Origin: a virus
Lineage: Duplodnaviria; Heunggongvirae; Uroviricota; Caudoviricetes
Virus record (IMG/VR): IMGVR_UViG_2534681831_000032
DNA length: 2,910 nt
Direction: 5' to 3' (one strand)
Both the position numbers and the translations under genes were made by a program. Below, piece after piece: positions 3-515 of the stretch. A model generated the notes under the pieces. It was given only the letters and a program-made list of their open reading frames with translations, was not told where the DNA came from and made no database searches. Positions within the stretch are counted from its first letter, which is position 1. The number at the start of each line of letters is the position of its first letter.

Positions 3-515
3 AAATACATTACTGAATACCTGACTACAAAGGGCGTGTTTGAGAATGAAGAAACAGACCTGGGCACTGTTGATGTTCTCCAGTCATCAGAAACACAAAC
101 TGATGCAGTGGAAACTGAGGTATCTGATATCCCAAAAAATGAAACCGCGCCGGAAGCTGAACCATCTGTAGAGCGTGAGGGGCCGTTCTATTTCCTCTTC
201 GCAGATAAGGACGGAGAAAAATACGGTCGCGCAAACAAACTTTCTGGTCTGGATAAGGCACTGGCTGCTGGCGCCACTGAAATCACAAAAGAAGAATATT
301 TTGCCCGAAAAAATGGCACATACACGGGCTTACCGCAAAATGTAGATACCGCTGAAGATTCAGAACAACCAGAGCCGATAAAAGTTACCGCTGACGAAGT
401 AACAAAATTATGCAGGCAGCCAATATCAGCCAGCCTGACGCCGATAAGTTGCTTGCTGCCTCTCGCGGAGAATTTGTTGCAGGGATTAGCGACCCGAATG
501 ATCCGAAATGGGTAA
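3..515 (+). CDS. Hypothetical acidic protein, 5'-partial (reading frame open to the left window edge; annotated GTG at 36 is probably internal)
   Basis: Frame 0 is open from position 3 to the TAA at 513-515 (about 171 codons, no stop). The ORF-track start (GTG at 36) is preceded by in-frame sense codons back to the window edge, so the gene most likely begins upstream. The product is strongly acidic (E/D/T/S-rich, e.g. [29 protein letters not shown]). The last ~35 codons (about 411-512) are rich in codons that are rare in enterobacteria (AGG, ATA, TTA, TTG, CGA) and overlap the next ORF, so the true 3' end is uncertain. Confidence 0.5.

Follow-up and report, generated by a model that had tools for sequence, protein, structure and literature searches.

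One missing base divides a single prophage exonuclease gene into two overlapping reading frames

The window, by which we mean the whole 2,910-nt stretch of DNA that was analysed, carries three co-oriented coding regions on its + strand: an exonuclease locus in which two ORFs were called, followed by an 82-aa ORF and then by a 376-aa ORF. The layout of these regions is as follows.

1–515, + strand: upstream ORF in window frame 3 (codons starting at 3, 6, and so on), open at the left window edge and closed by the TAA at 513–515
392–394, + strand: TGA in frame 2, the last frame-2 stop before the ATG at 410; out of frame in the native gene, which reads GC TGA C
410–1489, + strand: downstream ORF in frame 2, with the ATG at 410–412 and the stop at 1487–1489; 359 aa
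1554–1802, + strand: excisionase gene (xis), intact, 82 aa, identical to WP_000113189.1 as encoded in the database loci L003, L006, and L007
1780–2910, + strand: integrase gene (int), intact, 376 aa, identical to WP_000113674.1; ompW adjoins it in relatives

The two ORFs of the exonuclease locus share positions 410–515, i.e., 106 nt. On recheck, the coordinates given for the overlap, the TGA (392–394), and the TAA (513–515) in the original prediction proved exact, and the sequence quoted there for the out-of-frame tail of the upstream ORF was correct, with a length of 37 codons. The proposal that a −1 shift would join the two frames also held. Either such a shift or the insertion of one base connects them, and with one A added 495 codons are read without a stop from position 3 to the stop codon. 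The TGA at 392–394 only marks the point from which frame 2 is open to a program that calls ORFs mechanically, and the 359-aa ORF was called because the native Met465 is the first ATG after this triplet.

In relatives, the neighbourhood of the locus is the left arm of a lambdoid prophage, with dicB, ydfD/DUF1482, exonuclease, excisionase, integrase, and the attachment site; the latter is chromosomal and varies between prophages (ompW, rspB, or potC). Among other prophages, that at the ompW site of O157:H7 EDL933 encodes Xis and Int proteins identical to those of the window, and the window thus represents the left end of a prophage of the "PPompW" type. PPompW prophages are generally defective and contain pseudogenes (PMC8112680). 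The start of int lies 23 nt inside the xis ORF (1780–1802), which is a genuine overlap, found in the same form in relatives (5281–5303 in L003 and 4781–4803 in L006). Unlike the overlap at 410–515, the xis/int overlap is kept among the relatives.

For comparison we used 11 relatives that span 99% to 82% nucleotide identity and come from at least four different integration contexts. One continuous CDS of 2442–2493 nt (813–830 aa), annotated as "exonuclease" and encoding a C-terminal Rv2179c-like DEDD domain, spans the site in all 11, and the break falls in the middle of a protein block that is conserved in every one of them, including two with unrelated N-terminal halves. Megablast showed that the region is present in 4,740 of 5,426 complete E. 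coli genomes, mostly in several copies each. Among the matches listed that cover the whole query, a single "exonuclease" or "3′-5′ exonuclease" feature lies under all of positions 1–1497. Gene coordinates were taken from the relative L001, where the gene (CDS 2519–4990) is 2,472 nt long with 823 codons and position 3501 corresponds to position 1 of the window; the first 328 codons lie to the left of the window. On this scale the locus is divided into the following parts.

1–401, + strand: native-frame upstream part of the exonuclease gene, codons 329–461 of 823, in frame 3, from the alignment with the 11 relatives
401–402, + strand: deletion site, AA in place of the AAA of all relatives (GTA AAC to GTA AC), at codons V461–N462
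402–515, + strand: out-of-frame tail of 37 aberrant codons (TKLCRQ...MIRNG) and the TAA at 513–515
410–1489, + strand: downstream part of the same gene, codons 465–823 plus the stop; the ATG at 410 is the internal Met465

Alignment of positions 340–560 with three relatives revealed a sole length difference, the relatives reading GAAGTAAACAAAATT where the window reads GAAGTAACAAAATT. A regular-expression check found the exact wild-type string in the 11 fetched loci and the deletion string in none of them. After the A was restored, the window aligned without gaps to L001, L002, and L006 over 1,498 nt with 11–37 mismatches (11 for L001), indicating that the missing A is the only indel. As in a frameshifted pseudogene, repair of this single indel restores the full ORF, colinear with those of the relatives. 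The original prediction had preferred one frameshifted gene to two overlapping genes, and this is what we observed, since the relatives inspected all have a single CDS and the window has one A fewer. Two details of the prediction have to be corrected. The A4 run at 404–407, proposed as the indel site, is not the place of the loss, as the alignment with relatives puts the missing base three bases away, in the adjoining upstream A run at 401–402. The suggested "gene fusion" runs in the wrong direction, for the single ORF is ancestral and the split is derived.

Across the overlap, the relatives vary at 20 sites, and 13 of these fall on the third codon position of the native frame. The variant codons comprise 15 synonymous and 8 non-synonymous ones when read in frame 2, vs. 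2 and 21, respectively, in the frame-3 tail. We conclude from these counts that frame 2 is the selected frame across the overlap and that the tail has no coding history. The richness of the tail in rare codons, remarked on earlier from the sequence, was reproduced with a set of eight codons that are rare in E. coli (AGG, AGA, ATA, CGA, CGG, CTA, GGA, and CCC): they account for 6 of 37 codons in the frame-3 tail, whereas frame 2 has 1 of 35 across these positions. Elsewhere, the set contributes 3 of the 133 codons upstream (frame 3) and 15 of the 324 codons downstream (frame 2).

A genuine overlap of two genes was ruled out, as the relatives inspected are all single-frame. A pair of conserved genes overlapping in the same way in homologues would speak against a frameshifted gene; this was sought and found in 0 of 6,170 homologous places. 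Three ORFs are open on the other strand, opposite the acidic, Gln/Glu-rich linker of the protein.

188–886, − strand: antisense ORF, 232 aa
385–672, − strand: antisense ORF, 95 aa
486–890, − strand: antisense ORF, 134 aa

Coding antisense ORFs across the site were likewise ruled out. In the relatives these frames stay open for anywhere between 63 and 169 codons, and the minus-strand ORFs are therefore probably by-products of sense-strand codon composition.

To judge the length of the overlap, a one-base deletion was simulated in each codon of the intact gene. The median tail produced in this way was 25 codons, and tails of at least 37 codons arose at 35% of the positions. Some overlap with the next ATG-started ORF was obtained for 49% of the simulated deletions, and an overlap of at least 106 nt for only 3%. 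In the window, the overlap reaches 106 nt because a native Met codon sits three codons past the deletion. The overlap length per se is not unusual, and the frameshift alone suffices.

The intact L001 protein matches the family phrog_2082 ("exonuclease," 823 positions) over positions 1–822. Two features of the protein were located in the downstream part of the gene.

668–712, + strand: CxxC-x7-CxxC motif, a putative zinc ribbon (the zinc role is suggested by the motif only), in the linker common with RecE
941–1456, + strand: Rv2179c-like DEDD 3′-5′ exo(ribo)nuclease domain, PF16473, 228.6 bits vs. a cut-off of 27

The PF16473 match covers profile positions 2–177 of 177 and residues 178–349 of the 359-aa ORF, which correspond to residues 642–813 of the full protein; the domain is intact but is now located downstream of the frameshift. 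Solved relatives detectable by sequence were only 8kel and 8ken, both "exodeoxyribonuclease" entries (E = 4e-7). The predicted architecture of the 823-aa protein is a variable N-terminal module, an acidic CxxC...CxxC linker, and a C-terminal DEDD 3′-5′ exonuclease domain. The reading frame of the window is broken after codon 461 by the 1-nt deletion, and we therefore treat it as a disrupted copy and not as an intact member of phrog_2082 or PF16473. Our literature search on the function of the Rv2179c-like prophage protein family or of the PPompW exonuclease returned no report.

The intact 823-aa "exonuclease" of E. coli lambdoid prophages, exemplified by WP_000048551.1 (O157:H7 EDL933), WP_000034482.1, and ECO26_1771 (O26:H11 11368), is the same gene, with 97–99% nucleotide identity over positions 1–1497, the same synteny, and the same PF16473 domain. 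The window differs from it in lacking one A at 401–402, with the frame broken after codon 461. Upstream of this point the gene is mosaic. A junction is seen at approximately 362–381, where the relatives L004 and L005 and the records H24, H25, and H98–H100 match the window only from 379 onward. Relatives of the L004/L005 type have an unrelated N-terminal half that starts with MSTDKEEF... vs. MSKVFICAAIPD..., and L008 and L018 show a sharp divergence upstream of approximately 375. The conserved block KVTADEV... opens the common C-terminal module.

A second known protein to which the gene is related is RecE (exodeoxyribonuclease VIII) of the Rac prophage of K-12, which occupies the same position in the early-left operon as the exonuclease gene. 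The two have a central linker cassette in common: residues 473–625 align with RecE 453–591, the CxxC...CxxC motif included, and positions 589–884 of the window are approximately 85% identical in nucleotide sequence to K-12 Rac recE. By BLASTP against K-12 RecE, the alignment extends over residues 262–625 (RecE 278–591 of 866), with close similarity confined to 473–625. The nuclease domain of RecE is formed by its C-terminal roughly 260 residues. The catalytic ends of the two proteins differ, as the alignment stops before the RecE C-terminal nuclease domain and a DEDD domain is found here; no recT follows the exonuclease gene. Identity with RecE was also rejected by the NCBIfam equivalog model NF007259, which gave 279.4 bits vs. 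a cut-off of 1269, with the match limited to profile positions 267–602. On sequence evidence, the relationship between RecE and the 823-aa exonuclease is one of a common linker cassette with swapped nuclease domains. In the GenBank phage records H93, H95, and H98–H100 the protein is named "exodeoxyribonuclease VIII" or "exonuclease VIII, ds DNA exonuclease." This label is unjustified because the RecE cut-off is failed and the RecE nuclease domain is absent, and it is probably a mis-annotation that has spread via the common linker.

The deletion allele is a singleton. When the 55-mer of the window at 376–430 was compared by megablast with 6,170 places in 3,824 E. coli complete-genome records, no match of at least 99% was obtained, and the best matches listed all span 56 bases. 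Exact-pattern scans detected no deletion string in GTDB species genomes, IMG/VR viral contigs, or JGI metagenome contigs. A protein search with the N-terminal fragment joined to the aberrant tail yielded no high-identity match over the tail; the matches with at least 95% identity, partial proteins of the wild-type kind, cover at most 81% of the query. The single protein match with full coverage, P0062, is a metagenome product with a different frameshift and the same stop.

The exact 359-aa ORF is on record in two contigs, L007 and L008. L007 (GCA_043650015.1, DAZKGB010000022.1) is 99.92% identical to positions 408–2910, with 2 mismatches in 2,503 nt, and may be of the same lineage as the window. 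Its position 1 corresponds to window position 408, six bases past the deletion site, and the site itself is not covered. The end of this contig lies probably at the repeat common to several prophage copies of the exonuclease gene. L008 has AAA at the deletion site and is broken elsewhere. Compared with the window, L008, L015, and L016 show 11, 30, and 7 gap openings, respectively, and the gene is called there as 2–4 short ORFs. Judging from such alignments, most of the "split exonuclease" proteins in protein databases seem to stem from assemblies rich in indels rather than from biology.

A different frameshift in the same gene occurs in Shiga toxin-producing strains of serotype O145:H28, where a short repeat next to the deletion site is shortened.

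412–419, + strand: tandem GCAGGCAG, of which one GCAG unit is lost in the PPompW prophages of STEC O145:H28

Of the phage records, those closest to the window are the PPompW prophages of O145:H28, which annotate the gene as "putative exonuclease ... frameshifted by deletion of 4bp" (LC567818), and in RefSeq the O145:H28 allele is one "frameshifted" pseudogene (F7G76_RS07730). We found the 4-bp allele in 11 phage records and in 18 complete-genome records of RefSeq, only two of which lack an explicit O145 designation; the deletion was located in L018 (1905–1915) and L019 (CDS 1140–3607). The O145:H28 pseudogene agrees with the window in gene and prophage type and in the Xis and Int proteins, which are identical, and its frameshift belongs to one class with that of the window (−1 modulo 3). 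It lies about 10–15 nt downstream of the deletion in the window, enters the same alternative frame, and ends at the same TAA (513–515). The two alleles differ in that GCAG is lost in O145:H28 with the AAA intact, which makes the O145:H28 frameshift independent of that in the window; the allele of the window was found nowhere else searched.

Both frameshifts fall within codons 461–468, a short way past the point where the variable N-terminal module meets the common linker-DEDD module. That these codons are a recurrent break-point, with two same-class frameshifts within 20 nt of a 2,472-nt gene, is in our view improbable. Its cause could be selection in resident prophages, by which the C-terminal 3′-5′ exonuclease is lost and the N-terminal (YdfE-like) module is kept; another candidate cause is a mutational hotspot formed locally by short repeats. 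Being post hoc, with n = 2 and both events in short repeats, the coincidence is suggestive and is to be taken as a lead, not as a finding.

The locus is thus one gene with one missing base, in which frame 2 is selected and whose allele is absent elsewhere in the collections searched. With a probability of roughly 0.6, the deletion is in our view a genuine inactivating mutation private to one lineage, whose presence in the DNA we infer, and the locus is a pseudogene in a decaying prophage. The annotated pseudogene of the same gene in O145:H28 PPompW prophages was counted in favor of this reading. The intact xis and int and the lack of any other indel indicate that the record is not generally noisy. 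Counted against it were the singleton state of the allele and the start of L007 past the site. Both a frameshift pseudogene and the gene family concerned are already known, and this is not a new gene arrangement.

According to the pseudogene reading, one A of the AAA run at V461–N462 would have been lost from a single 823-codon exonuclease gene. Ribosomes coming from the native start, outside the window, would translate 461 native and 37 out-of-frame codons and stop at the TAA at 513–515. This would yield a truncated protein of 498 aa that lacks both the linker and the nuclease domain, and the C-terminal two-fifths of the protein, nuclease domain included, are expected to be lost. The 359-codon ORF starting from the internal Met465 is probably translated poorly or not at all, its non-expression being what we infer from the surroundings of the start codon. 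No match to a Shine-Dalgarno sequence was found at the ATG at 410; the 17 nt upstream pair with the anti-SD sequence at −0.6 kcal/mol, compared with a window mean of −2.3, and the pairing is weaker than at 71% of window positions. The test is weak against expression of the 359-aa ORF because the xis start is likewise poor (−0.4 kcal/mol). A search for promoter-like or terminator-like sites in positions 200–800 found none.

A singleton allele is what either a private mutation or a single sequencing error would produce, and it does not favor one over the other. It is possible, though unlikely, that the organism has the AAA run and the 823-codon gene, and that one A was lost from the record by an error of sequencing or assembly (a homopolymer under-call or a consensus error). 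Such an error would agree with the uniqueness of the allele across all collections searched and with the position of the missing base within a homopolymer, and the same gene is chopped by evident assembly noise in other public assemblies (L008, L015, and L016). However, the run is only 3 bases long, and homopolymer errors are uncommon in 3-base runs. Furthermore, the missing A is the sole indel in 2.9 kb vs. close relatives, xis and int are perfect, and genuine frameshift mutations of the same gene are known from O145:H28, a well-sequenced lineage.

If the deletion is real, both parts of the gene could in principle be working proteins, i.e., the N-terminal module and a stand-alone 359-aa protein of linker and DEDD exonuclease. 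The break is situated approximately 20 nt downstream of the mosaic junction near 379, hence roughly between two modules; the DEDD domain is intact, a native ATG is available within 3 codons of the break, and PHROGs families of shorter pieces exist (phrog_20376, phrog_14078, and phrog_5943). Yet, we consider a functional split highly unlikely. Neither a Shine-Dalgarno sequence (−0.6 kcal/mol) nor a promoter-like site supports initiation at the ATG at 410, and the upstream stop is located 103 nt past this ATG, so that coupling by termination and reinitiation would be unlikely. The same split occurs in no other genome searched. In O145:H28, the independent frameshift puts the ATG at 410 out of frame for the C-terminal part, and this frameshift therefore gives no support to a selected product initiated at Met465.

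Recoding, which the original prediction had listed among the possible causes, is barely credible as an explanation. It would require that the full-length protein be made via −1 slippage of tRNA-Lys on one motif.

404–407, + strand: A_AAA tetramer, the only slippery motif, as read from the sequence in the mutant zero frame GTA ACA AAA TTA

The deletion places the A4 run in the A_AAA register, where re-pairing in the −1 frame would be perfect, and a −1 slip would give ...DEVTKIMQ..., i.e., a full-length protein with a single N462T substitution. In E. coli, lysyl-tRNA(UUU) is prone to slip (PMC4066793). Against this, the published efficiency of tetramers without a stimulator is near background (0.147% vs. 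0.112%), and A_AA.A is the weakest of the six motifs that respond to a strong pseudoknot (PMC4066793). No X_XXY_YYZ heptamer is present in the zero frame, only the tetramer. A stimulatory structure was not apparent either: the 105 nt at 396–500 fold at −28.9 kcal/mol (z = −1.26), and 18 of 200 shuffled sequences were as good. The arrangement is conserved in no homologue (0 of 6,170 places, with 11 of 11 relatives single-frame), which argues against any programmed feature. The −1 frameshift sites of dnaX and IS3/IS911 are alike in having two overlapping frames joinable by a −1 shift and an A-rich tetramer read by tRNA-Lys. Unlike them, the window has no conservation, heptamer, stimulatory SD sequence, or structure, and its motif was made by the deletion itself. 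Conservation, motif, and structure thus all led us to reject programmed −1 frameshifting. At most, traces of full-length protein are conceivable; a programmed event is not supported.

For annotation, these results mean that the locus is to be described as one frameshifted gene (a pseudogene) and not as two overlapping genes, and that the 359-aa "exonuclease" ORF is not to be taken as a natural stand-alone protein. The finding has no bearing on any open question. If the deletion is real, the prophage would have lost the DEDD exonuclease of its early-left operon and kept xis and int, and it would be one more case of the piecemeal decay of prophages.
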